A stretch of DNA of 64,000 nucleotides from a candidate division Kazan bacterium GW2011_GWA1_50_15 (GTDB lineage: Bacteria; Patescibacteriota; Kazan-3B-28): contig CP011216.1 in NCBI GenBank assembly GCA_001029795.1, forward strand, positions 418,577-482,576. The letters are read 5' to 3'. Both the position numbers and the translations under genes were made by a program. A model generated the notes under the pieces. That model was not told the DNA's origin. It searched no databases and worked only from the letters and a program-made list of their open reading frames with translations. Of the stretch, positions 26,989 through 63,718 are shown piece by piece; position 1 is the first letter of the stretch, and each line of letters begins with the position of its first letter.

Positions 26989-27519
26989 TCATGCTTCATA
27001 ATTCGCTCTTAGTTTATCTAGCCCCCGTTTGACTATAACGCGGAGGTGATTCTCGGTTTTGCCAGTAATTTCGGCTATCTCCGGATACTCCAGCTCCTCC
27101 ACAAATTTTAGCTTGAGAACGGTCTGATAGAGCTCCGGCAATTGGTCGATATTATCAACGACTCTAGCCATCTCGTCAGCCAACTCAACTTCCGCCTCTA
27201 TATCCGTGCTACCAGAGCGATTTATTACGGCGTCCAGGGAAACTGTCGGCCGGTAGCGGCGGTAGTGATCAATTAGGTTATATCTGGCGATAGCGAACAG
27301 CCAGGTCCTGAAGGACCTGTCAGGGTTATATCGGCGCAGGCTCTGCCAGGCTTCCAGCCAGATCTGGCTCAGAAGATCTTTCGCCTGCTCGTCGTCGCGC
27401 AGACGAAAGGTCAGAAAGCGGTAGACACTATCTGATAGTTCGTCAAATAACTGGCCGAATGCGCCGCTATCGCCCTCCTTGGCCGCCCTAGCCAACTGAT
27501 TGATTTCTTGATTATTCAT
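26989..27519 (-). CDS. RNA polymerase sigma factor, ECF family (paralogue)
   Basis: region 2 YRFLTFRLRD...LLSQIWLEAW and region 4 HTH YPEIAEITGKTENHLRVIVKRGL. Confidence 0.85.
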   Translation of the reverse strand: MNNQEINQLARAAKEGDSGAFGQLFDELSDSVYRFLTFRLRDDEQAKDLLSQIWLEAWQSLRRYNPDRSFRTWLFAIARYNLIDHYRRYRPTVSLDAVINRSGSTDIEAEVELADEMARVVDNIDQLPELYQTVLKLKFVEELEYPEIAEITGKTENHLRVIVKRGLDKLRANYEA

Positions 27520-27569
27520 TTTAGTTACGCCCCGAGTGGAAGCGAGGGACTACCATAACTTGTCACTTA

Positions 27570-28823
27570 TCACTTTCGACTTTTTGCTACCTTTCTGATT
27601 ATCCCCCCACCGATACAGATAGAACCATCATACAGTACCAAGGATTGGCCCGGAGTGAGCGCCCTGACTGGGTTGTGAAATACAAAGTGCCATTCTTTGC
27701 CTTTTTTGTCAAGAGTACCGGCATAAATATCGGGGCCATAGCGGGGTTTGGCAGATAACCCGCCCACTCCGTCATTCCGAACTTGTTTCGGAATCTTCCC
27801 TATCAGATGAGATCCTGAAATAAATTCAGGATGACGAACAAAGTATTTCGGGTCTATCAGGTGGAGATCTTCCAAAATCACTCCCCGACCATAGGTGGCG
27901 CTATCCGGGCCGACTACCACTAGATTTTTCTTGATATCAGTTGAAACAACATATAGCGGGTCTTTTTGACCTGATAAGCCAGCCACCCGCCGCTGGCCGA
28001 CAGTGTAGAACCAAGCCCCCTCATGTTCCCCTACCACCTTGCCATCCAGGTTGACAATTTTGCCATTTTTAGAGGTAATGGCAGTTTTGAGGAACTGTTT
28101 GACATCCACCGGGCCGATAAAGCAGATGCCCTGACTATCTGGTTTGTCAGCCGTGGGGAGTTTAAACTGGCGGGCCAGGGCTCGGACCCGCTTTTTGGGA
28201 TATTGACCGATAGGAAAGAGCGTCTTGGCTAGCTGAGCTTGGGTCAGATTATAGAGAAAATAGGTCTGGTCTTTCACTCCATCAACTCCTTTGAGGAGTT
28301 GATGGACCAAGGTATCTCCTCGGTATCTCGAAGAATCAGATTTTTTGATTCCCCCTCGGTTCCTTGGGGATTCACCATTTGGAATTTGGCATTTGGAATT
28401 TGTCATTGCGCGCTTACGCGCGTAGTGTCCGGTAGCGATAAAGTCGGCGCCCAGAGCAAGAGATTTTTTCAAGAACAGGCCAAACTTTATCTCTTTATTG
28501 CACATCACGTCCGGATTGGGCGTCCGGCCAGTTTTATATTCGGCAAAAAAGTAGTCTAGAACTTGTTTTTTGTACTCGGCTTCAAAATTGAAGGTGTAGT
28601 AGGGGATGCCGAGATGCTGGCAGACGGCGCGCATATCGGCAAAGTCCTGCTCGGCGCTACAAAAAGATCCTGAAACAAGTTCAGGATGACTGGAGTGAGA
28701 GTTTTTTTCGCTCCAGTTCTTCATAAACACTCCGACCACCTTAAAACCCTGCCTCTGAAGCAGCGCGGCGGACACAGATGAGTCCACTCCCCCGCTCATC
28801 GCTACAAACACGGTCTGGGACAT
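27570..28823 (-). CDS. mnmA: tRNA 2-thiouridine(34) synthase MnmA, carrying three in-frame insertions
   Basis: PP-loop AMSGGVDSSV, conserved TPNPDVMCNKEIKF and ICIGGGII blocks; 417 aa versus about 365 typical; extra segments coincide with palindromic repeat elements. Confidence 0.85.
   Translation of the reverse strand: MSQTVFVAMSGGVDSSVSAALLQRQGFKVVGVFMKNWSEKNSHSSHPELVSGSFCSAEQDFADMRAVCQHLGIPYYTFNFEAEYKKQVLDYFFAEYKTGRTPNPDVMCNKEIKFGLFLKKSLALGADFIATGHYARKRAMTNSKCQIPNGESPRNRGGIKKSDSSRYRGDTLVHQLLKGVDGVKDQTYFLYNLTQAQLAKTLFPIGQYPKKRVRALARQFKLPTADKPDSQGICFIGPVDVKQFLKTAITSKNGKIVNLDGKVVGEHEGAWFYTVGQRRVAGLSGQKDPLYVVSTDIKKNLVVVGPDSATYGRGVILEDLHLIDPKYFVRHPEFISGSHLIGKIPKQVRNDGVGGLSAKPRYGPDIYAGTLDKKGKEWHFVFHNPVRALTPGQSLVLYDGSICIGGGIIRKVAKSRK
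27770..27836. repeat. MITE-like palindromic element, copy inside mnmA coding sequence
   Basis: cgtcattccgaacttgtttcggaa...atcctgaaataaattcaggatgacg: terminal inverted repeats cgtcat/atgacg enclosing two short hairpins. Confidence 0.7.
28666..28692. repeat. partial copy of the same palindromic element inside mnmA
   Basis: gatcctgaaacaagttcaggatgac; encodes the HPELVSGS insertion. Confidence 0.65.
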
Positions 28824-28868
28824 AAAAATTACAAGTTAAAAATTAAAAAAATACCGATATTTCTATCC

Positions 28869-28917
28869 CGTCATTCCGGATCCGCCAGCTGGCGGAAATC
28901 CGGAATCCAGAAAATGT
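28869..28917. repeat. intergenic copy/variant of the palindromic element family
   Basis: cgtcattccggatccgccagctggcggaaatccggaatcc: same cgtcattcc terminus, long near-perfect palindrome; further hairpins at 28931-28954 and 28963-28987. Confidence 0.6.
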
Positions 28918-29193
28918 TCTTGTTCTTGTTTGGATCCCCGCTTTCGCGGGGATGAAAGAAAAAGGACGGCCGGGAAATCCGGCCGCCCTGCGTTTGACCT
29001 TAGTTACCGCTCGTTCCTGACATACGGCCCTCCTTTGGCATCTTAAAGATACAAAAATGTGCAACCGTCATGAGAAGACGGCTAGATACTGGATCACCTC
29101 CTCTGGGCCGGGTTGGCCCAAGAATATAAGAGTAAGTGATCTGGCACCGCGCCACCTCCTTTGTAAGAAACATTACGAATTAATTATAGCAGG

Positions 29194-29228
29194 ACAAATA
29201 AAAAGGACGGCTCCAACCCAAGCCGTCC
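29194..29228 (-). terminator. intrinsic terminator downstream of the 96-aa zinc-finger protein gene
   Basis: hairpin ggacggct-ccaaccca-agccgtcc with A-tract on plus strand (U-tract on minus transcript). Confidence 0.7.
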
Positions 29229-29229
29229 A

Positions 29230-29520
29230 TTAGACATTGCACCGCACCACACCCCTAGTGCCGTTGACCAGCCAGTTGCCTGGCTCGTCCAGCATTATTC
29301 GCCCTACGGCGATGTCGGCGGCAAACTCGTGCCAATGGTCAGCACAGAGATAGATATCCTCCTTGAGACCGGTGGACATATTGCCGGACAGCGTCATATA
29401 GGAGTACCGGGCCGCAACGGCTCGAGACGTATCAGTCGCCAGGCCACAGACCTTGCACCTGTGCGTCTCTAGGACAACATTTGTTGCCAGCTTTGGCCTA
29501 GCTAACGTTGTCTCTCTCAT
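29230..29520 (-). CDS. small hypothetical protein with Cys/His zinc-finger-like motifs
   Basis: CKVCG...LCADHWHEF...VRCNV; immediately downstream of the MerR-like gene. Confidence 0.5.
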   Translation of the reverse strand: MRETTLARPKLATNVVLETHRCKVCGLATDTSRAVAARYSYMTLSGNMSTGLKEDIYLCADHWHEFAADIAVGRIMLDEPGNWLVNGTRGVVRCNV

Positions 29521-29545
29521 CTACTCACCACCTCCTTCTGAAGGT

Positions 29546-30061
29546 TCAAAATAGCTTCCACCAGGACCAGGACTTCTTGGGTTGGCTAGGTGGGAAAAGC
29601 AGTAAGGTTAAGTGATCGATCTCACGTTTGAGAGTTCCTTTCAGGTCTTCTCTCATCTCCCGTCTTAAGGAGTGAAGTTCAGAGCCTAAGGAGTTGAGAG
29701 CGATTAGCAGTTTCTCCTTGTACTCCTCATCGAAAGCCGCAGTTGCCTGCTGAACCGGGGCAGTTATCCCCTGCTCAGCGGTTGGGTTTGAAGCGGTAAA
29801 CCCCCGGTTGCTTAGCATGTGTTTGATGCCAGCTTGGGTAAAGAGGCGAGACTCCATCAACCCCTTGATCCGCTCCATCACCTGGACATCCTCAACAGTA
29901 AATGTCCGGTGATTGTACCGGTTGCGATAGTTGGACAAAAACTCCGAGAATCCCCTCTCCCAGTTTCGGACAGTCCCCTCGCTCACATTCAAATACTTGG
30001 CTACCTCCGAAAGTGAGTAGGTCTGCTGGGTATCAACTTGTGGGTTATCCACAATCTCCAT
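29546..30061 (-). CDS. MerR/excisionase-family helix-turn-helix DNA-binding protein
   Basis: N-terminal HTH YSLSEVAKYLNVSEGTVRNWER; ORF-track start 30064 is a TTG, first ATG at 30059-30061; TATAAT about 10 nt upstream suggests a leaderless transcript. Confidence 0.7.
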   Translation of the reverse strand: MEIVDNPQVDTQQTYSLSEVAKYLNVSEGTVRNWERGFSEFLSNYRNRYNHRTFTVEDVQVMERIKGLMESRLFTQAGIKHMLSNRGFTASNPTAEQGITAPVQQATAAFDEEYKEKLLIALNSLGSELHSLRREMREDLKGTLKREIDHLTLLLFPPSQPKKSWSWWKLF

Positions 30062-30111
30062 CAACTTTTGATTATATTTTTATGGTGTAATGATAAATGG
30101 GGATAAATGCC

Positions 30112-30140
30112 TTGACCTACAATGGTGTTGTAGGTATAAA
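30112..30140 (+). promoter_or_regulatory. consensus sigma70 promoter whose 17-bp spacer is a palindromic operator
   Basis: TTGACC (30112-30117), 17-nt spacer tacaatggtgttgtagg, TATAAA (30135-30140); palindrome cctacaatggtgttgtagg 30116-30134; divergent from the MerR-like gene. Confidence 0.6.
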
Positions 30141-31315
30141 ATTATTTACTGCAGCGGATAATCCCTCCGCACCTACAACGGTCTTTCAACTGAGACATAG
30201 AAAAAGATCACGATGGCTAAAATTGTTGCGAGGGTTAACATAGTGTTGTAGGTTACCTACAACACTATTGTAGAAGACCTACAACATAGTTGCAACCCCC
30301 AACATTTTTGCTTACAACATAGTTGCGGGTCAGAAAGGCCTATATATAGTTATATAATATAGTAAAGCGTTTTTCCGAAACATAGGCCTACAACACCCTT
30401 GCAGGCATTTCCCCGTAGGCCTATAACACCCTTGTAGGTGGCCTACAACACTCTGCAAAGTTGTCTACAATTGACTTTCAACCCCGATTTATGTTGTAAT
30501 CACTCAACACCTATGAGGGCGCGTTGGGGATAACTGAAATTTTTAGCCACCTACAACACCGTTGTAGGCTAACAAATATTTATGGAAGCGGAAAAATCGT
30601 TCGCGTCTACAATACTGTTGTAGGTTGGGGCAACGTTGCAGTAGATGATTACACATATTTTGTAATTATTTGTCAATATTTAGTCAGAATTTGTCAAGGG
30701 GTCTTATTCTACCTGTACACAAAAAACACCCCTACTTGGTAGCAGGGGTGGGTGTGCGATGCTTTCCGTTCCAAAAGAAAGCCTATCATGTTCCAGCCCA
30801 ACGGCCGAGATGAACAAAAAAGGAGGGACCGGGCCGAGGCCTTAAGGACGCGAGGAGTTCGCATCCATTATCTCGGTATGGGGCAAAGGAGGAACTCACG
30901 GCCCGGGTCCCAGTGGAGGGGAGGGAATAGTTCCCATCCAAACGTTGAGAAGGTAATCTGTTGTTTACTTTCGCCTGAATGACGAAAACAACATTCGGTG
31001 GGGGAGTGGGACGGCTGGCGCCCCCCAAGAGTTCGCTGTCGTCCCTAAAACTTAATGATCGCCACCCTACAGGATAGTGGGGCGGCCATAATGGCAAGTT
31101 GTTAAGGGACGGGAGGGTTCCATTGTCTCCACAACTGCTAGTGTACGGAATACTTTGTGGGTTGGTCAATGAATTAACTAAAAACGTTAGTTTTGCCGTC
31201 TACACCAATCTGCGACGGCGGGGGAGAGTAGATTGGCATGCCTACAAGGGTGTTGTAGGGATTAAAGTAGCTCTGCGACATCAAAAATCATCCGCGCCTA
31301 CAAGGGTGTTGTAGG
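30116..31315. repeat. cluster of about 14 copies (full and half) of a 19-bp palindrome CCTACAA-N5-TTGTAGG in a non-coding locus
   Basis: near-perfect copies at 30116-30134, 30420-30438, 30550-30568, 30606-30624, 31241-31259, 31297-31315; variants at 30256-30274, 30279-30296, 30311-30329, 30387-30405, 30442-30460; half sites elsewhere; AT-rich tract 30338-30362. Confidence 0.8.
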
Positions 31316-31365
31316 TCTGCGGGGGAACGGTTCAAGGTTAAAAATGATAAGTTGCAGAATTAAGC

Positions 31366-31408
31366 AGGGGGATAAAAAATAAAAAAATCCCGCCCAGGGG
31401 GCGGGACG
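31366..31408 (-). terminator. intrinsic terminator of ndk
   Basis: hairpin tcccgccc-aggg-ggcggga with AAAAAATAAAAAAA on plus strand (long U-tract on minus transcript). Confidence 0.8.
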
Positions 31409-31421
31409 CCTGATGTGAAGT

Positions 31422-31961
31422 TTAGGCTAGTTCCGGGAACCAGAGTTTGATCTCGCGTGCGGCTTCCGGAACTGACTCGGAGGCATGAACAAGATTCTCC
31501 AGCGCCCGACCCTCACCGTTGGCCTTAGCGTAGGAATCAATCCCATAGTCGCCACGGATGGTGCCCTTGTCAGCGTATTCAGGACTGGTAGCGCCTACTA
31601 GATCCCGGATCTTTTGGATGGTGCCCTCCGGGCCCTCGACGATCATAGCCACTACTGGCCCCGAGCCGAGAAAGGTGGCCATCCACTGTCTAATCTGTTT
31701 GCCAACCGCTACCGGATTATCAGAGCCGAAAATCTTGTTGATATCCAGACCCTGCTTCTGATAGCTGGCGACTGTCTTGCTGCCAACACTGGCGTACCAT
31801 GTGTCGGAGTCAGTGTAGTGTCTGAGCGCTAGGTCGCTATCTACCGCCGTCTCCTTTCTAGTGGTAACATTCAACCCAACATCGGTGAATCGCTGGATGA
31901 TCTGATCGACCAACTCCCTTTTGACCCCATCCGGCTTGATCATGACAAAGCTACGTTCCAT
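31422..31961 (-). CDS. ndk: nucleoside diphosphate kinase (with internal insertion)
   Basis: N-terminal ERSFVMIKPDGV, GPVVAMIVEG and active-site NLVHASES (NxxHGSD-type) motifs; 179 aa. Confidence 0.8.
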   Translation of the reverse strand: MERSFVMIKPDGVKRELVDQIIQRFTDVGLNVTTRKETAVDSDLALRHYTDSDTWYASVGSKTVASYQKQGLDINKIFGSDNPVAVGKQIRQWMATFLGSGPVVAMIVEGPEGTIQKIRDLVGATSPEYADKGTIRGDYGIDSYAKANGEGRALENLVHASESVPEAAREIKLWFPELA

Positions 31962-31983
31962 AGCACTCCTCCTAAGGTACAGA

Positions 31984-33255
31984 TTAAAGTCTATAAAATC
32001 TCTTCACCTTGCTTGCGTCTTTGTAAGGGCCGATAACGGTCAAGACTAGCTTGTTATCAGTAAACAGCTTGCGGGCCAATCTTTGGACCTGATCGGTGGT
32101 AACGGCGTGAATCTTGCGTTTCATAGTCTCCACGCTTTCGATCTTGTCGTGGAGCAGGTCCTGCAACCCAAAAGTATACGCCACCTCGTCGGAATGCTCC
32201 AAACCTCGCACCATCCCACCCACCAAGAACTCCTTGGCTTTGGCCAGTTCTTCAATCGGCACTTTACTGCGGGTAATATCCCGAAACTCGTCGAGAATAG
32301 TTTTGATGGCCAGATCGACTCGATTAACGTCCACCCCAGCGCTAGCCACTAAATAACCTGCGTCAGTGTAGTGCTGGGCGGCTGCCCTCACGTAGTAGGC
32401 AAGCCCTAGACGCTCTCTAACGCTCATAAACAGCCGCGAACTCATTCCGCCGCCCAAGATAGCGGCCAGGACCGTAGCGACGTACTTATCGGGATGTGAC
32501 GAGCCGAAGGATGGTACTCCTAAGACTAAATGAGCTTGTTCGGTTTTTTTATAGAGAATTTCGCTCCGCTTAGTTCGCTTGGTCTCACGGTAGAGAGTTG
32601 GTTGGTTCTTCTTGACGGTCTTCTTGTATGGCAAATACTCCTCCACCAATCGCTTAGCTTGAGTGGGAGTAATGTTACCGGCCACCGCCACCACGATATT
32701 GGGAGCCGAGTACAGCCGAGTCCGATAGGCGATAAAGTCCTCTTGTTTAACCGACTTGATCAAGGTCTTAGTCCCGATCGTCGACCAGCCCAGAGGATGA
32801 TCACCAAAAATCAGCCTTTCAAAGTCGTCCCAGATCTTCCGGACCGGGGTATCTTCGTACATGTTGTATTCCTCCAAGATAACACCTCGTTCACGCTCCA
32901 GACCATCGGGGTCGAACTTAGCGTTGAACATCATATCCGAGAGGACATCGAAGGCCACTTCAGTGTGTTCGCGAGCCACTTTGACGTAGTAACCGACGTA
33001 TTCATCGCTGGTAAAGGCGTTGAACTCGCCCCCTATCCTGTCGATAGCTTCGGAGACCTGCCGAGGAGTGGGGTAGCGCTCGCCGCCCTTGAAGAACATA
33101 TGCTCCAGAAAGTGAGCGATACCGTTGATCTCTTTGGTTTCGTATCTGGAACCAGCCCGGACCAAGATCATCACTGTAACCGCTTCGGTGGAGCGCATTG
33201 GTGCTACCACCACACGCATCTTGTTGGGTAGAGTGATTTTTTCTAGCTTAATCAT
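31984..33255 (-). CDS. M16-family zinc peptidase (insulinase-like)
   Basis: inverted zinc motif HFLEHM (HxxEH) near N-terminus; 423 aa. Confidence 0.8.
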   Translation of the reverse strand: MIKLEKITLPNKMRVVVAPMRSTEAVTVMILVRAGSRYETKEINGIAHFLEHMFFKGGERYPTPRQVSEAIDRIGGEFNAFTSDEYVGYYVKVAREHTEVAFDVLSDMMFNAKFDPDGLERERGVILEEYNMYEDTPVRKIWDDFERLIFGDHPLGWSTIGTKTLIKSVKQEDFIAYRTRLYSAPNIVVAVAGNITPTQAKRLVEEYLPYKKTVKKNQPTLYRETKRTKRSEILYKKTEQAHLVLGVPSFGSSHPDKYVATVLAAILGGGMSSRLFMSVRERLGLAYYVRAAAQHYTDAGYLVASAGVDVNRVDLAIKTILDEFRDITRSKVPIEELAKAKEFLVGGMVRGLEHSDEVAYTFGLQDLLHDKIESVETMKRKIHAVTTDQVQRLARKLFTDNKLVLTVIGPYKDASKVKRFYRL

Positions 33256-33265
33256 AGACGTGAAG

Positions 33266-34810
33266 TTATTTAGCTAGTCCTTCGGCGCGAGTTTCCCTGA
33301 TAACCAATACCTTGACCTGACCCGGGTAGGTCATCTCTTTTTCGATCTGGCTAGCTACATTGCGGGCTAGTTTGGCCGCCTCCAGATCGTCTACTTTAGT
33401 TGGTTCTACCATGATCCGTACCTCGCGACCAGCTTGGATGGCGTAGGCTTTGCCAACACCTTCATAGCTTTTTGCGATACGCTCCAGATCTTCTAGGCGT
33501 TTAACAAAGTTCTCCGCCGACTCTCGTCTGGCCCCAGGGCGAGCCGCAGAGATAGCATCAGCCGCCATAGTGATAAAGTCTAGGGGTGATTTGGGCCCGC
33601 CAAAACCTTCATGTGAGGTTTCAAGCGCTTGGATGATCTCTTTTGGCAAACCGTATTTAACGGCGATGTCTCGAGAGAGTTCGGTGTGAGAGCCTTCGTA
33701 CTCGTGATCGAGTGCTTTACCGATGTCGTGCATCAGAGCGGAGAGTTTGGCTATGCGCGTATCTAGACCGATCTGGCTAGCCATCAGCGAGGCCAGATGC
33801 GCCGCTTCGATTGAGTGGCGCAGAACGTTCTGCCCGTAACTGGTGCGGAAGTTCAACCGGCCGATAATCTTGATCAAGTCCGGGTTAAGACCGGTCAGAC
33901 CTAGTTCCAACACAGCATCTTCACCGGCTTTCTTCATCTCCTGCTGGATCTCTTTGTCGGCACGCTCTACCAGCTCTTCGATCCGAGCCGGCTGAATGCG
34001 GCCGTCTTTTAATAGCCGCTCCAATGCTCGTTTGGCGATATGCCGGCGGATGGGGTCAAAACCAGAAATCACTACCGTGTCCGGGGTGTCATCGATGATC
34101 AGGTCAACCCCAGTTGCCTTTTCAAACGCCTGGATGTTGCGGCCTTCCCGCCCGATAATCCGGCCCTTGAGGTCGTCACTGGGCAGCGGCACCGAAAAGG
34201 TCGTCCCCTCGGTGGCAGTGTCGGCAGCGTAGCGCTGAATGGCCTCTGAAACTATCTCCCGAGCCTTATCGTCAGCGTTGTCGCGCGCTTCGCGCTCGAC
34301 CTGCTTGATCAGATTCAAGGCTTCGTCTTTATACTCTTTTTCCAGACGAGCGAAGAGCTGTTCTTTGGCTTCTTCGTGCGGAAGCTTAGCGACTTCTTCT
34401 AATTTTTTCAGCTGATTGTCCCTGATCCGCAGGATCTCTTCTTTAACCTCCTGCACCTCTTTATCTTTGGCGATGATGGCCTCTTTCTGCCTATCGAGGT
34501 CGTCGAGCTTCTTGTCCAGATTCTCATCTTTGGCGATCAACCGCTTCTCTAGATCAGAGAGTTCTGTCCGACGCTCCTTCTCCTCCTTATCGATCCGTTC
34601 GCGAATTTTACTAGCCTCATCGCGGGCGGCCAGCACGAGTTCTTTTTCTTTCTGTTCAGCTTGGGCCAGCTTTTCTTTGGCCTTAGCTAAGATCTTGTCC
34701 GCCTCCTGCTCGGCGTTGTCTACCTTCTGCTTGGTCGAGGTAGTTTTCCACCAGTACCCCAAACCAGCGCCGACAATTGCCGCTAGGACACCGATTAACA
34801 CATTGGTCAT
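33266..34810 (-). CDS. rny: ribonuclease Y
   Basis: N-terminal TM helix, long E/K-rich coiled coil, KH domain GRIIGREGRNIQAFEKATGVDLIIDD, HD domain with MHDIGK. Confidence 0.9.
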   Translation of the reverse strand: MTNVLIGVLAAIVGAGLGYWWKTTSTKQKVDNAEQEADKILAKAKEKLAQAEQKEKELVLAARDEASKIRERIDKEEKERRTELSDLEKRLIAKDENLDKKLDDLDRQKEAIIAKDKEVQEVKEEILRIRDNQLKKLEEVAKLPHEEAKEQLFARLEKEYKDEALNLIKQVEREARDNADDKAREIVSEAIQRYAADTATEGTTFSVPLPSDDLKGRIIGREGRNIQAFEKATGVDLIIDDTPDTVVISGFDPIRRHIAKRALERLLKDGRIQPARIEELVERADKEIQQEMKKAGEDAVLELGLTGLNPDLIKIIGRLNFRTSYGQNVLRHSIEAAHLASLMASQIGLDTRIAKLSALMHDIGKALDHEYEGSHTELSRDIAVKYGLPKEIIQALETSHEGFGGPKSPLDFITMAADAISAARPGARRESAENFVKRLEDLERIAKSYEGVGKAYAIQAGREVRIMVEPTKVDDLEAAKLARNVASQIEKEMTYPGQVKVLVIRETRAEGLAK

Positions 34811-35123
34811 AATCTAACCTCCGCAGTACCAGGAACAAACCACTACGCCCCGAGGGAGCATACTGTTTTTGCTACCTTAAGCCGTCCTTTAAAAGAGAAA
34901 GCTGAATCCGGCCACTTCGAGTACGGGCCGGAAGACGTCGATAAAGGTGACCATCGGATGGGCCAGCAAGGGGATGAGTAGGGCCATTAACCTGGTAATT
35001 TTAAGTGATATGGGGGCTGGAAACTTACCCAAAACTGCCGCCAGCCACCTTCAATTTACGCTTTAATTTGGAGGAGGTCAAACTTGGGTTGGCGAGGCGC
35101 CAAGTTGAGGGCATACTGGACTT

Positions 35124-37058
35124 ATGTGGGGGAAAATTCTGTGTTTGGGAGTCGGCGTTGGACTCGGGGTGGGTCTGGCTCAATTTGTGTTGGCAGACGA
35201 TACGATGCCGGATGTGGTCATCAGCGAAGTGGCTTGGGCCGGCAGCACTAAATCAGCATCCGACGAGTGGATTGAATTGGAGAATATGACCGGACAAGCG
35301 ATTGACCTAAGTGGTTGGCAACTGCTTATCGATAATCCTGGCACGGATTACGCCATTAGCTTAACTGGCATGATCCCTAGCTGGGGATTTTTTCTTGTCG
35401 CCAAATATTCCGAAACAAATCCCAATTCAGCATTAGAGGTGACCGTCAACCTTAACCGAGAAGAAGAAGGATTTGGGATTACGAATAGCGGTTTCTCTAT
35501 CGAGCTTACAAACCCCGAGGAGATACTAGTGGATACAGTATGGGATATTGATACCCCTCCAGACTTTGCCTATCGACACGGGGCAACTGACGCCTCTTCA
35601 ATGGAACGTCTGACACCAATCACCGATGGGGTGTTAACCAGTAGCTGGCAAGCTCCTAGCGATTCAGTCAATTTCAAAATTATAGAGGGTTCAACGAATT
35701 GGGGCACACCCGGTGCTGAAAATTCGATCATCACCGACCCACCCACGCTTACTACCATCACCCCGGCCACAGTGACGCAAGGCGAAACTCTGGGAGTAGA
35801 AAGTATCACCGGCACAGGATTTAGCTTAGAACCGCCTCCCGCGGTCCAGTTAATCCATGGGGGATTCGCGCTGGATGCCACAACCTTACATGTGGCTAAT
35901 CCTGAATTGATCGATCAAGCACGGTTTACCACTGTCTCAAACACGGAACTGGGGTGGTGGGACCTCACCCTGGTAAATCCCGACGGCAAGATAGCCACCT
36001 TACCCGATGCGGTAGAAGTGGTGGCCCCCGAACCCGAATACGATCTCAGCTCGACTGTTCGAATTAACGAAATTTATCCTCACCCGAACACCACCAGCAA
36101 CGATGAGTTTATCGAGCTTTATAATTTGGGGGATAAGGCAGTTAATCTAACTGGCTGGATATTGGATGATGTAACAACCGGCGGCTCGTCGCCATATACG
36201 CTTGATAATATAAATATTGGCGCCAAAAGTTTTTTGGTACTGTATAAACCGCAAAGTAAACTCACGTTGAATGACAATGGCGACTCTGTCTATCTAATTA
36301 GGCCGGATAACTTTGTGTTGGATCAAGTGGACTACACCAGCGCGGAGCAGGGTCAAACTTTGTCACGATTCGCGATCGGTTGGAAGTGGACTGCGACGCC
36401 GACGCCGAACGGCGCCAATGTCTTAACTGGGCCGGAGGACGACACGCCGCCAAGCGAACCGCCGTTGGAGCCAGACGACGAACCGTCGGCCCCGCAGCAT
36501 CAACCGGGCGAGCTGCTCATCACTGAATTGCTGCCCAACCCAAGCGGCGGGGAAGAATTTATCGAACTACACAATCCCGGGAAAACCGCAGTCGATTTGA
36601 CCGACTGGGAACTCAAGGACGCGGCTGGTAAAAAATATACCATCGGCGATTTCGATGTGACGATCCAAGCCGTTTCGCTCGCCGTCCAGCCGGGGCAGTA
36701 TATCGTCGTCACTCAGGGTATGTCCGGGTTGGCTTTGAACAATAGCGGCGGGGAAACGGTCAACTTGCTTGACCCCAATGGAGTAATTATTGCGAGCGTG
36801 TCATATCCAGACAAAGCGCCGGCCGGTGCGGCCTATGCGCTAGTGGACGATAGTTTGTGGACTTGGGTATCTAGCCCCACGCCGGGGCAGCCGAATGTGG
36901 TAATACTGTCCGAAGATATGACCGAACCGTTGCCAGAAATCATTGTACCCGAGACCTTGCCCGTGACCGGTAGCCCGATGCGACGTTGGCTGGGAATTTT
37001 GCTGACCAGTTTTGCCCTAGCAGGCGTGGTATTCTGGAAACGCAGAGAGAACTCTTAA
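35124..37058 (+). CDS. cell-wall-anchored surface protein with three lamin-tail domains and C-terminal LPXTG sorting signal
   Basis: signal peptide; three LTD-like units (ISEV...DEWIELEN...IDLSGWQL; RINEIYP...EFIELYN...NLTGWIL; LLITELLPNP...EFIELHN...DLTDWEL); C-terminus LPVTG, hydrophobic helix, KRREN tail. Confidence 0.75.
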   Translation: MWGKILCLGVGVGLGVGLAQFVLADDTMPDVVISEVAWAGSTKSASDEWIELENMTGQAIDLSGWQLLIDNPGTDYAISLTGMIPSWGFFLVAKYSETNPNSALEVTVNLNREEEGFGITNSGFSIELTNPEEILVDTVWDIDTPPDFAYRHGATDASSMERLTPITDGVLTSSWQAPSDSVNFKIIEGSTNWGTPGAENSIITDPPTLTTITPATVTQGETLGVESITGTGFSLEPPPAVQLIHGGFALDATTLHVANPELIDQARFTTVSNTELGWWDLTLVNPDGKIATLPDAVEVVAPEPEYDLSSTVRINEIYPHPNTTSNDEFIELYNLGDKAVNLTGWILDDVTTGGSSPYTLDNINIGAKSFLVLYKPQSKLTLNDNGDSVYLIRPDNFVLDQVDYTSAEQGQTLSRFAIGWKWTATPTPNGANVLTGPEDDTPPSEPPLEPDDEPSAPQHQPGELLITELLPNPSGGEEFIELHNPGKTAVDLTDWELKDAAGKKYTIGDFDVTIQAVSLAVQPGQYIVVTQGMSGLALNNSGGETVNLLDPNGVIIASVSYPDKAPAGAAYALVDDSLWTWVSSPTPGQPNVVILSEDMTEPLPEIIVPETLPVTGSPMRRWLGILLTSFALAGVVFWKRRENS

Positions 37059-37069
37059 CTCTAATCTAG

Positions 37070-37130
37070 CGTCATGCTGAACTTGTTTCAGCGTCTCGAA
37101 TGAGACCCTGAAATAAAATTCAGGGTGACG
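37070..37130. repeat. intergenic copy of the MITE-like palindromic element family
   Basis: cgtcatgctgaacttgtttcagcg...accctgaaataaaattcagggtgacg: same termini and internal hairpins as the copy at 27770-27836. Confidence 0.7.
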
Positions 37131-37141
37131 GCACAAAATAT

Positions 37142-37585
37142 ATGTTACGCATTGTTACTAACAACTTGGCCGCTACTCATAAGCTAGGTGAGGCTATTGG
37201 GAAGAACTTAAAAGGCGACGAGACATTGGCTTTGGTGGCACCACTCGGCGGAGGCAAGACCTCGTTCACGCAAGAGTTGGCCAAGGGTCTTGGCATAAAA
37301 AAATTAGTCATCAGCCCGACCTTCGTGTTGGAGCGGACATATAAAGGCCGGCACCCTCTGCATCATTTTGATATGTACCGCATCGAGGTGGAGGACGCCG
37401 ACTCGACCGGGCTGTCGGATATTTTGGGCGAGGCGGTCGTGGTGGTGGAGTGGGCGGAAAAGTTAAAGTCAGTGTTGCCGGAAGATACCATTTGGGCGAC
37501 CATCAAAATAGTAGGGGAGAATACCAGAGAGTTCATATTCGAGTACCCCGAAAGTCGTAGTTATGTCTTCCAAAATGTTAAATAA
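37142..37585 (+). CDS. tsaE: tRNA threonylcarbamoyladenosine biosynthesis protein TsaE
   Basis: Walker A APLGGGKTSF, about 147 aa, followed by tsaB. Confidence 0.8.
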   Translation: MLRIVTNNLAATHKLGEAIGKNLKGDETLALVAPLGGGKTSFTQELAKGLGIKKLVISPTFVLERTYKGRHPLHHFDMYRIEVEDADSTGLSDILGEAVVVVEWAEKLKSVLPEDTIWATIKIVGENTREFIFEYPESRSYVFQNVK

Positions 37586-38192
37586 TATTCTCGGTATCGA
37601 CACCTCCCACGAGGAAACTGTCATTGGTTTGAACGGGAAGCTCGTGGTGTGGAAGTCAGTCAGAAATCAATCAAAAGAGCTGCTGCCCAAGATAGATAAA
37701 CTGCTCCAAGAGCAGAAAATTAAGCCAGCCAAATTAAAAGGGGTGGCAGTGAATATTGGCCCGGGTTCATTCACCGGTCTGCGCGTCGGTGTCACCGTCG
37801 CCAATGGTTTTGGCTACGGCCTGAAACTGCCGGTGGCCGGCATCAGCGAGTTTGATGTCGTCAAAATGCTCTACCCAAAAGTGGATATTATCGTACTGGA
37901 CGCCAAGCGGGGAGAGCTGTTCATCCAGGCCAGTAAGACCGCACCAAAATTAATTCCGGCCGGAAAACTTGGTGGTCTCATCAAGACCGGCACCCGAGTT
38001 TATCTCGACGATTATCGTCTCGTGCCTGCCACCCATGAGCAACTAAAAAAAGCGGGAACGATCTACATTCCCAACCTTACCCGCAGTCAAAAAATGACGG
38101 CAATGCTGACCGCTAAGCTTCCTAAAAAATTCGCCCAAGTCCTGCCGGTCTATCTGCGCGGAGCAAACATCACCAAATCCAAAAAGAAATAG
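37563..38192 (+). CDS. tsaB: tRNA threonylcarbamoyladenosine biosynthesis protein TsaB (YeaZ-like)
   Basis: LGIDTS N-terminus and GPGSFTGLRVG motif; alternative ATG at 37575. Confidence 0.75.
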   Translation: MSSKMLNNILGIDTSHEETVIGLNGKLVVWKSVRNQSKELLPKIDKLLQEQKIKPAKLKGVAVNIGPGSFTGLRVGVTVANGFGYGLKLPVAGISEFDVVKMLYPKVDIIVLDAKRGELFIQASKTAPKLIPAGKLGGLIKTGTRVYLDDYRLVPATHEQLKKAGTIYIPNLTRSQKMTAMLTAKLPKKFAQVLPVYLRGANITKSKKK

Positions 38193-54380: not shown

Positions 54381-54454
54381 GGGTCCGTAGCTTAGTGGTA
54401 AAGCAGTTGCCTTTTAAGCAATTGATGCAGGTCCGATTCCTGCCGGACCCACCA
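54381..54454 (+). tRNA. tRNA-Lys (anticodon TTT)
   Basis: acceptor gggtccg/cggaccc, D-arm gctt-agtggta-aagc, anticodon loop ctTTTaa, T-loop aggtccgattcct, CCA encoded. Confidence 0.85.
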
Positions 54455-63643: not shown

Positions 63644-63718
63644 TGGTAGCCCGTATGGGAGTCGAACCCATCTTTCCAGCTTGAAAAGCTAGCGTCCTAA
63701 CCGATAGACGAACGGGCC
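63644..63718 (-). tRNA. tRNA-Glu (anticodon TTC)
   Basis: reverse complement: acceptor ggcccgt/acgggct, anticodon stem ctagc/gctgg with loop ttTTCaa, T-loop gggttcgactccc, CCA encoded. Confidence 0.8.

Follow-up and report, generated by a model that had tools for sequence, protein, structure and literature searches.

CGTC-tagged palindromic repeats within the mnmA gene of a candidate division Kazan bacterium

Introduction

CGTC-tagged repetitive extragenic palindromes (REPs) are small hairpins: an unpaired CGTC tag is joined to an 8-9-bp stem that starts with A-T, the loop measures 4-5 nt, and the tail is 3 nt long (Di Nocera, De Gregorio and Rocco 2013, BMC Genomics 14:522, PMC3733652). In the family CGTC-2, the stem is 8 bp and the loop 5 nt long. 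The tag variants TGTC and CCTC are tolerated, the consensus of the tail is CCA, and the stem variants are related by complementary changes (PMC3733652). Most CGTC REPs occur as 'HH' dimers, in which the tags lie outside, the stems are often unlike, and the spacers usually measure 20-100 bp; no dedicated transposase is known for them (PMC3733652). Here, we focus on a 64,000-nt stretch (the window) of the uncultured, small-genome candidate division Kazan bacterium GW2011_GWA1_50_15, in which mnmA, the gene for tRNA 2-thiouridine(34) synthase, holds such repeats within its coding sequence.

CGTC REPs are occasionally found in frame within genes, where single units contribute 9 amino acids (aa) and dimers 20-30 aa (PMC3733652). 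For example, the published supplement lists the peptide RHSELVSGS in Sulfurovum SUN_0512, an in-frame CGTC-2 unit, as well as CGTC-1 dimers ending in LDSRLRGND. Two Rickettsia palindromic elements (RPEs) of R. conorii, RPE-6 and RPE-4, have been assigned to CGTC-1 and CGTC-4, respectively (PMC3733652). Also described are REPs with a GTAG tag, among them intragenic ones in Opitutus terrae, and in-frame fusions with MITEs (miniature transposable elements with inverted repeats), for example Coxiella QMITE1 and MITEs of Anabaena (PMC3733652, PMC10969869). In-frame CGTC REPs are already described, and the novelty here is the host lineage, for which our literature search found no report: it returned no paper joining palindromic elements with Patescibacteria, and none containing the encoded peptides or the hairpin sequence as text. 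One paper that joins the candidate phyla radiation with extragenic palindromes came up, which by its title deals with mobile elements from compost.

CGTC-2 repeats in mnmA

The mnmA gene contains three inserts, numbered here from the start of the protein, and two of them are hairpin repeats (Table 1). Insert 3 is made of two perfect 8-bp hairpins that are inverted relative to each other. The unit at 27770-27797 on the forward strand reads CGTC-ATTCCGAA-cttgt-TTCGGAAT-ctt, and the unit at 27836-27809 on the reverse strand reads CGTC-ATCCTGAA-tttat-TTCAGGAT-ctc, each with 0 mismatches. On the coding strand the dimer runs as CGTC-ATCCTGAA-tttat-TTCAGGAT-ctc, an 11-nt spacer, and aag-ATTCCGAA-acaag-TTCGGAAT-GACG; it encodes R330-D351 (RHPEFISGSHLIGKIPKQVRND) in the loop that joins the central domain to the C-terminal barrel. 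Insert 1 is a single unit that encodes S45-S53 (SHPELVSGS), in the loop leading from NWSE to the invariant C55.

The window contains five CGTC-2-like units and two units of another CGTC type, and three of these seven lie in the 1.25 kb of mnmA. Two further CGTC-2-like units form the intergenic dimer at 37070-37131. This dimer, which was aligned with five other dimers, is homologous to insert 3: the two-unit layout and the loops are alike, and the stems differ by compensatory changes. The dimer at 28869-28957 is related to insert 3 but is not its copy. Its first unit, CGTC-ATTCCGGAT-(16-nt loop)-ATCCGGAAT-CCA, has a 9-bp stem and carries the palindrome CCGCCAGCTGGCGG in its loop, and its second unit, TGG-ATCCCCGC-tttc-GCGGGGAT, has the degenerate tag GAAA. 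Both hairpins are predicted, and the CCA tail and the combination of an 8-bp stem with a 4-nt loop agree with the published description of CGTC-1.

The repeats are not chance matches. The hairpin pattern was found 3 times against 0.00 expected in shuffles, and a scan for CGTC hairpins returned 4 units, where 20 Markov simulations gave 0.25 on average. The RNA folding z-scores are -3.9 for the insert 3 dimer, -2.6 for the insert 1 unit, -7.6 for 37070-37131, and -4.9 for 28869-28957, as compared with -0.25 and +1.2 for two control segments of mnmA. Rfam, searched over 27000-38000 at E up to 1, gave only two sub-threshold chance matches, neither of which falls on the elements.

Much of this had been anticipated in an original prediction, which proposed that repeats resembling Rickettsia palindromic elements lie in frame in an intact mnmA. 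They do, and the hairpins fit the definition of CGTC-tagged REPs. The cgtcat...atgacg element at 27770-27836 is present exactly as described, as two facing perfect 8-bp hairpins, and the hairpin reported near 28666-28692 is found at 28664-28691. Of the two intergenic copies proposed for the first element, the one at 37070-37130 is a true homologue, whereas that at 28869-28917 belongs to a different CGTC-type REP. The prediction had also named chance matching of the repeats elsewhere as what would undo it, and the counts above speak otherwise.

Table 1. Features of the mnmA locus and its product. Positions are those of the window; the sites are given by residues of the protein.
Feature	Position	Strand	Remarks
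mnmA, tRNA 2-thiouridine(34) synthase	27570..28823	-	Intact 417-aa ORF; ORF list and Pfam
Insert 3, CGTC-2-type dimer	27770..27836	-	67 nt; tags outermost, unlike stems
Insert 2, ~30-33 extra residues	28314..28412	-	aa ~138-170 (MTNSKCQIPNGESPRNRGGIKKSDSSRYRGDT); beta-hairpin tip after TGHYAR
Tandem repeat inside insert 2	28377..28402	.	7 nt, ATTTGGA x3.7 (or 14 nt x2.3); Tandem Repeats Finder, scores 45 and 57
Insert 1, single CGTC-2-type unit	28664..28691	-	AGTC-ATCCTGAA-cttgt-TTCAGGAT-ctt, 0 mismatches; tag variant AGTC
Intergenic dimer of other CGTC-type units	28869..28957	.	45 nt upstream of the mnmA start codon
Intergenic CGTC-2 dimer	37070..37131	.	Tags outermost, unlike stems; between LTD-domain ORF (35124-37058) and tsaE (37142-37585)
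Site 1	between W37 and C55		
Site 2	between H133 and L176		
Site 3	between H321 and A358		
Site 4	between G369 and F380		
Predicted insert-junction peptides of MnmA			...YFVRHPEFISGSHLIGK..., ...NSHSSHPELVSGSFCSAEQDFADMR

Comparison with described repeat families

The tag is CGTC in four of the five CGTC-2-like units (27770, 27836, 37070, and 37131) and AGTC in the single unit of insert 1. The 8-bp stem starting with AT and the 5-nt loop of CGTC-2 are found in the stem/loop combinations ATTCCGAA/cttgt, ATCCTGAA/tttat, ATCCTGAA/cttgt, and ATGCTGAA/cttgt (the last with 1 mismatch); one unit starts with AC and has a loop of 6 nt (ACCCTGAA/ttttat). All three dimers, 27770-27836, 37070-37131, and 28869-28957, have their tags outermost. 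The insert of SUN_0512 and SHPELVSGS of the window represent the same unit and share its frame: compared by peptide and not base by base, RHSELVSGS is the translation of the window unit except for one stem position.

There are also differences from the CGTC-2 REPs described in 2013. The tail is CTT or CTC in the CGTC-2-like units as opposed to the consensus CCA, which is seen in the 28869 unit and in most units of the related locus L126 (described below). The spacers are 5-11 nt long instead of 20-100 bp, and the host, a Kazan member of the Patescibacteria, lies outside the five phyla listed at that time (PMC3733652). Here, moreover, three inserts share one gene, and several families are found repeatedly in the same loops across the gene family. 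Judged by the published description together with the encoded peptide, inserts 1 and 3 are CGTC-tagged REPs of the family CGTC-2.

Since RPE-4 and RPE-6 are assigned to the CGTC REPs, the analogy with Rickettsia is a superfamily relationship that goes beyond resemblance; by the published family assignments, the window units belong to the RPE-4/RPE-6 superfamily but probably not to the same family. As far as RPEs are summarised in later papers (Ogata et al. 2000, 2002, via PMC10969869, PMC3733652), they too are palindromic repeats lying in frame in housekeeping genes that stay intact, with peptides judged compatible with the fold. In mnmA the insertions are likewise in frame, the open reading frame (ORF) is otherwise intact and conserved, and the inserts occupy low-pLDDT positions of a confident model. 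In those summaries RPE-1 appears as a longer palindromic insertion, whereas the Kazan units measure 28 nt and the dimer 67 nt. The hosts differ as well: an obligate intracellular alphaproteobacterium in the case of RPEs, free-living or episymbiotic groundwater bacteria of the candidate phyla here.

REPINs, according to what Bertels and Rainey are said to have described in 2011, are REP doublets mobilised by RAYT transposases. The likeness is that an inverted pair of REPs, forming a larger hairpin, is the unit of the family, with single units plausibly being remnants. However, REPINs have a GTAG tag and an associated RAYT gene, whereas the tag here is CGTC and not GTAG. The GTAG REPs of Opitutus and the MITE fusions resemble the Kazan repeats in that small repeats lengthen ORFs in frame, sometimes two per gene. 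They belong to other element families, and MITEs differ by their terminal inverted repeats and target-site duplications; no such duplication is seen here.

The host protein and its variable loops

The product of mnmA has the three-domain architecture of the family, with Pfam matches to PF03054 (2e-76), PF20259 (3e-23), and PF20258 (4e-11), and its top sequence matches in the PDB by phmmer are the MnmA/TrmU entries 9hlv, 2hma, and 2der (E ~1e-90). In an alignment of 118 homologues, the PP-loop S10-GGVDS15, D105/C108, and C234 are invariant, so the PP-loop, the catalytic D/C-x-x-C, and the second catalytic Cys of an MnmA are present along with the three domains. An identical protein is found on 12 contigs of candidate division Kazan-3B-28 from four sources (NCBI, JGI, ENA, and Logan), and all nine members of its cluster at >=90% identity cover the inserts identically; the inserts are therefore not an artefact. 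The nearest named homologues are from Patescibacteria. The substrates of the enzyme, tRNA-Lys(UUU) and tRNA-Glu(UUC), are encoded in the window at 54381-54454 and 63644-63718, among a total of nine tRNA genes.

The homologues range in length from 333 to 526 aa. This variation is concentrated at four sites (Table 1), and control stretches are essentially constant in length. The window protein has 17 residues at site 1 (mode 9-10), 42 at site 2 (mode 12), and 36 at site 3 (mode 13-18), site 2 being the most variable loop of the family with 8-84 residues. In phmmer alignments with 9hlv and 2hma, site 1 shows a 9-aa gap, and residues 138-170 at site 2 stay unaligned between two alignment stretches. 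Altogether, the protein is ~60 aa longer than insert-free orthologues such as P0012 (357 aa), P0015 (352 aa), and P0027 (345 aa). The original prediction was thus right that the ORF is intact and extended, and its estimate of about 50 extra aa was somewhat low; that the gene is essential, as the prediction put it, is an assumption.

An AlphaFold2 model computed from the 118-sequence alignment has a mean pLDDT of 88.3 and a pTM of 0.87, and Foldseek gives it a TM-score of 0.88-0.90 normalised to 2hma and 2det_A. The pLDDT drops below 50 only at residues 149-160 and 163-167 (insert 2) and 340-348 (insert 3), while the site-1 blocks (41-60) have a mean of 55-70, with a mean of 55 for residues 41-50. 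The predicted core is MnmA-like and confident, and confidence is low only at the three inserts. The orthologue alignment, proposed at the outset as a check on surface-loop placement, puts the inserts in length-variable loops that are predicted to be flexible. Most likely, this is a working enzyme with three tolerated floppy loops.

The reading frames of the repeats are constrained. The insert 3 dimer has a single open frame among the six, which is the frame that mnmA uses. All REP-derived inserts, here and in the orthologues, are in frame and stop-free even though only 1-3 of 6 frames are open. The 12 recognisable CGTC-2 units in the 118 homologues all read as HPELVSGS-like or IPKQVRND-like peptides, and none of the 12 uses the hydrophobic frame VILNLFQD, which is also open. 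From these frame constraints we infer that the inserts are translated.

Filled and empty sites among orthologues

Around mnmA the genes are arranged as MerR, two small ORFs, mnmA, sigma-70, and DUF5667, and genes for nucleoside diphosphate kinase (NDK), peptidase M16, RNase Y, an LTD protein, TsaE, and TsaB are also near. The gene order is identical in every orthologous contig fetched, and hence the comparisons involve true orthologues.

The dimer of insert 3 is found at the same site-3 junction in P0002; there, a nested insertion of 26 nt interrupts its first hairpin. The same dimer, in the same reading frame, is present in P0045 and P0005, but at site 2. P0030 and P0025, which lie on a distant branch, have a related dimer at the site-3 junction. 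P0034 and P0006 have CGTC-1 dimers (..DSRLRGND) at that junction; in P0035 and P0036, the sisters of P0034, the site is empty. The syntenic P0012 (L127) has all sites empty and 0 CGTC units in its 6.9-kb contig, and in the REP-rich 21-kb locus of P0006 (L126) 11 CGTC units are found, of which mnmA holds 3; related genomes carry from 0 to 11 units per 7-21 kb. In a neighbour-joining tree of the core columns, the insert-free P0012, P0013, and P0015 are nested among insert-bearing orthologues, and core identity across the clade is 65-74% for orthologues with and without inserts.

On the DNA of syntenic orthologues, the question is settled for inserts 1 and 3: they are insertions, not native loops. 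The original prediction held that the same extra segments in orthologues from unrelated bacteria would indicate lineage-specific loops; what is found is that empty orthologues are nested among filled ones, the dimer occurs at another loop, and other families occupy the same junction. The distribution of the CGTC-2 dimer would need at least four separate fillings, or else one old insertion followed by many clean losses. The pattern as a whole points to permissive loops that have received insertions repeatedly, with selection retaining those whose frame is open and hydrophilic.

Other mnmA loci deserve description. In P0006 (L126:10001-11425), single CGTC-1 units are centred in longer palindromes, the arms of which are tandem GTCGCGA-type repeats that encode VASRESRV...SLATRDSSLATHH; together they form a composite type of element. 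The genes P0009 and P0010 (L232:3001-4206 and L233:3001-4245) are 100% identical over the 3' ~640 nt and ~90% identical in their 5' halves. At site 1 an in-frame indel of 42 nt (SPSAVRPRAHGREEVEGS), non-CGTC and also present in P0002, sets them apart, and their site-2 palindrome has diverged. By this pattern of identity, the pair is a recombinant mosaic between strains. It was considered as a test of CGTC insertion, filled versus empty at site 1, and set aside because of the mosaic and the non-CGTC nature of the insert; it shows only that site 1 is polymorphic.

Insert 2

Insert 2 is not palindromic overall and folds no better than shuffles (z +0.5), and no further copy of its DNA is found in the window, at up to 3 mismatches, or in 127 fetched loci. 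As there are no other copies, its interpretation as a palindromic repeat is dropped. Of what was claimed for 28340-28430, the insert and its tandem repeat (ATTTGGA x3.7, 7 nt) stand, and the palindromic repeat does not. Nor does the gcgcgc-tta-cgcgcg hairpin at its edge, the stem of which is only 5 bp long and overlaps the codons of the conserved HYARKRA. The same segment, gtcattgcgcgcttacgcgcg, was also rejected as a degenerate CGTC unit, since its pairing is limited to 5 bp and its 3' arm codes for the conserved HYAR. Insert 2 is left unclassified, as an insertion or an expansion in a permissive loop. In other orthologues, site 2 is filled by CGTC dimers, by long palindromes with tandem GTCGCGA-type arms, or by NSK-rich low-complexity runs.

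Origin and maintenance of the inserts

The explanation that we favour, and regard as quite probable, is that CGTC REPs entered the ancestry of this mnmA and persist as tolerated passengers in permissive loops of a working MnmA. Small non-autonomous CGTC-tagged REPs would have entered the gene in the ancestry of the Kazan-division genome, one arrival being a tags-outermost dimer and the other a single unit. They would be retained where the frame was preserved, where no stop was introduced and the peptide was hydrophilic, and where the loop tolerated an extra 9-22 residues. At the beta-hairpin tip after TGHYAR, a third permissive loop would hold an unrelated 30-residue insert, which probably grew in part by slippage of its 7-nt tandem repeat. 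The inserts would then be passengers, not functional modules, and the product an MnmA with three floppy surface loops. We also infer that the inserts are neutral and that they arrived by insertion via a trans-acting activity.

Several observations weigh against this explanation. By inspection, no target-site duplication is seen flanking 27770-27836, 28664-28691, or 37070-37131, and no transposase is present among the 10 neighbouring ORFs scanned, no RAYT/HUH search of the full genome having been made. The nine cluster members at >=90% identity, all with three inserts, include no empty-site allele; because there is no such near-identical allele, and the next orthologues are 65-70% identical, the insertion events are read from the distribution. 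The left junction at site 3 falls at the same codon in the window, in P0002, and in the distant P0030. It could reflect one old insertion with many later losses instead of recurrent gain, and target preference, tolerance limits, or common ancestry could each produce it. Finally, the perfect intragenic stems and their compensatory changes fit young passengers or subfamily variants, and also fit selection on the hairpins.

The last point bears on the most serious alternative, a decidedly unlikely one in our judgement, in which the hairpins are kept for their nucleic-acid structure, either as mRNA (pausing at domain boundaries, RNase processing, or stability) or as DNA, and the peptides are a cost. 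Many REPs have been argued to act as RNA elements (Di Nocera et al., PMC3733652), and in mnmA the stems of all three intragenic units are perfect. In six dimers from four candidate-phyla genomes 94.8% of cells are paired, with compensatory changes at 5 of the 16 stem pairs; such variation is, however, general in REP families and can be explained by the insertion of copies of different subfamilies. The REP units of the window and P0002 are more alike than the flanking coding DNA, yet in P0002 the first unit is broken by the nested insertion and the gene is kept. In the predicted structure, sites 2 and 3 are located at a hairpin tip and an inter-domain linker, but the same loops are filled by other element families and by the non-palindromic insert 2, and many close orthologues have no insert at all.

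Unusual insertions are known from the rRNA genes of candidate-phyla-radiation bacteria. By analogy, the inserts of mnmA, which are strongly structured as RNA, might be excised from the transcript or bypassed by the ribosome, and so be absent from the mature protein. This is very improbable: the REP-derived inserts are uniformly in frame and stop-free, and only their hydrophilic frames are used, a constraint that would not exist for untranslated inserts. Furthermore, the elements are 28-67 nt long, have no Rfam match, and lack intron-like features. Three inserts in one 1.25-kb gene could likewise be taken as marks of a non-functional mnmA decaying in a reduced genome, for which we see hardly any likelihood, given that the ORF is intact, the catalytic and structural invariants are kept, the fold is confidently predicted, the core is conserved among the clade orthologues at the identity given above, and the substrate tRNAs are present. 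Least probable of all is an origin in place, in which the extra segments would be loops specific to the lineage whose resemblance to repeats is a coincidence; insert 2 has no repeat copy and the site-3 junction is common to three lineages, but the hairpin recurs across many phyla (see below), an intergenic copy lies in the window, the chance expectation for the hairpin is 0.00, the same dimer occupies different loops in orthologues, and for inserts 1 and 3 the idea is already refuted.

Distribution beyond mnmA and implications

At least 120 genome loci contain an exact match to the 25-nt pattern GTCATNCYGAACTTGTTTCRGNRTC. Among the matches listed, the hosts include Sphingomonadales, Bacteroidia, Treponema, Melainabacteria, Nitrospirota, Ignavibacteria, Gracilibacteria, Kerfeldbacteria, other Patescibacteria, and one Nanoarchaeota genome; most of these copies are outside long ORFs, and some are deep within ORFs of 485 to >1200 codons. 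The Nanoarchaeota copy lies right where a stretch of 584 codons begins, probably upstream of the gene. The pattern is also found in 104 viral or proviral contigs of IMG/VR (L128-L207 and further loci), some of which have inverted hairpin pairs 40-60 nt apart. Phages might carry CGTC-2 repeats between hosts, although the contigs are possibly host-contaminated.

In-frame single CGTC-2 units are seen within long open stretches in other phyla, at L042:2393-2417, L051:5125-5149, L068:5054-5078, and L016:2672-2696. In a membrane-like ORF of Patescibacteria that spans 485 codons, WILKQVQDD is found at codon 345; a Treponema ORF of >1255 codons has CHPELVSGS, and a gammaproteobacterial ORF of 934 codons has a CGTC-2 unit. 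At L123:12422-12483, a tags-outermost CGTC-2 dimer makes up the last 17 codons and the stop of the sigma-70 gene adjoining mnmA (...SASRHPELGSGSPTQDSETRSE*), which is thereby a second gene, in a related candidate-phyla genome, to be decorated by a CGTC-2 element.

These findings extend the in-frame insertion of palindromic repeats, best known from Rickettsia, to the candidate phyla radiation. The many independent fillings of the same loops make the MnmA family of this clade a compact comparative system, in which one may follow how selfish DNA in genes is filtered by selection, on its frame, its hydrophilicity, and the position of the loop, and how CGTC REPs, a class with no known transposase, are able to spread. 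In practical terms, such inserts inflate protein lengths and spawn spurious 'hypothetical' peptides, so that recognising them improves gene models and alignments of the candidate phyla.

A further reading is unlikely but would have wider consequences. In candidate-phyla genomes of ~0.6 Mb, two or more CGTC families, together with other palindromes, have repeatedly hit the same three or four codon junctions of mnmA. This might mean that an unrecognised mechanism, directed by structure or by site, makes CGTC REPs actively mobile here, or else that selection acts on the intragenic hairpins. Were this true, the mnmA family would serve as a natural assay for the movement of CGTC REPs, and the result would bear on the occurrence of near-identical 25-nt units from Sphingomonadales to Patescibacteria, Nanoarchaeota, and viral contigs.

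Neighbouring features

The NDK gene next door to mnmA (31422-31961, reverse strand) encodes a long form, 179 aa in length. As its Pfam match falls into two stretches, it was examined as a possible repeat-bearing gene, which its end-to-end alignment with PDB 1xqi, a 195-aa Pyrobaculum-type NDK, rules out; with ordinary NDKs of 140-150 aa it aligns in two pieces. Being a known long form, it is not repeat-derived.

Between the MerR-like gene and NDK, ~1.35 kb (30065-31420) is without long ORFs. In this segment the palindrome CCTACAAC-N3/4-GTTGTAGG occurs at least 8 times around a GC-rich core (~30700-31180), and nothing credible matches it in Rfam. The segment might be an array of operators, an RNA that lacks annotation, or a region resembling an origin.

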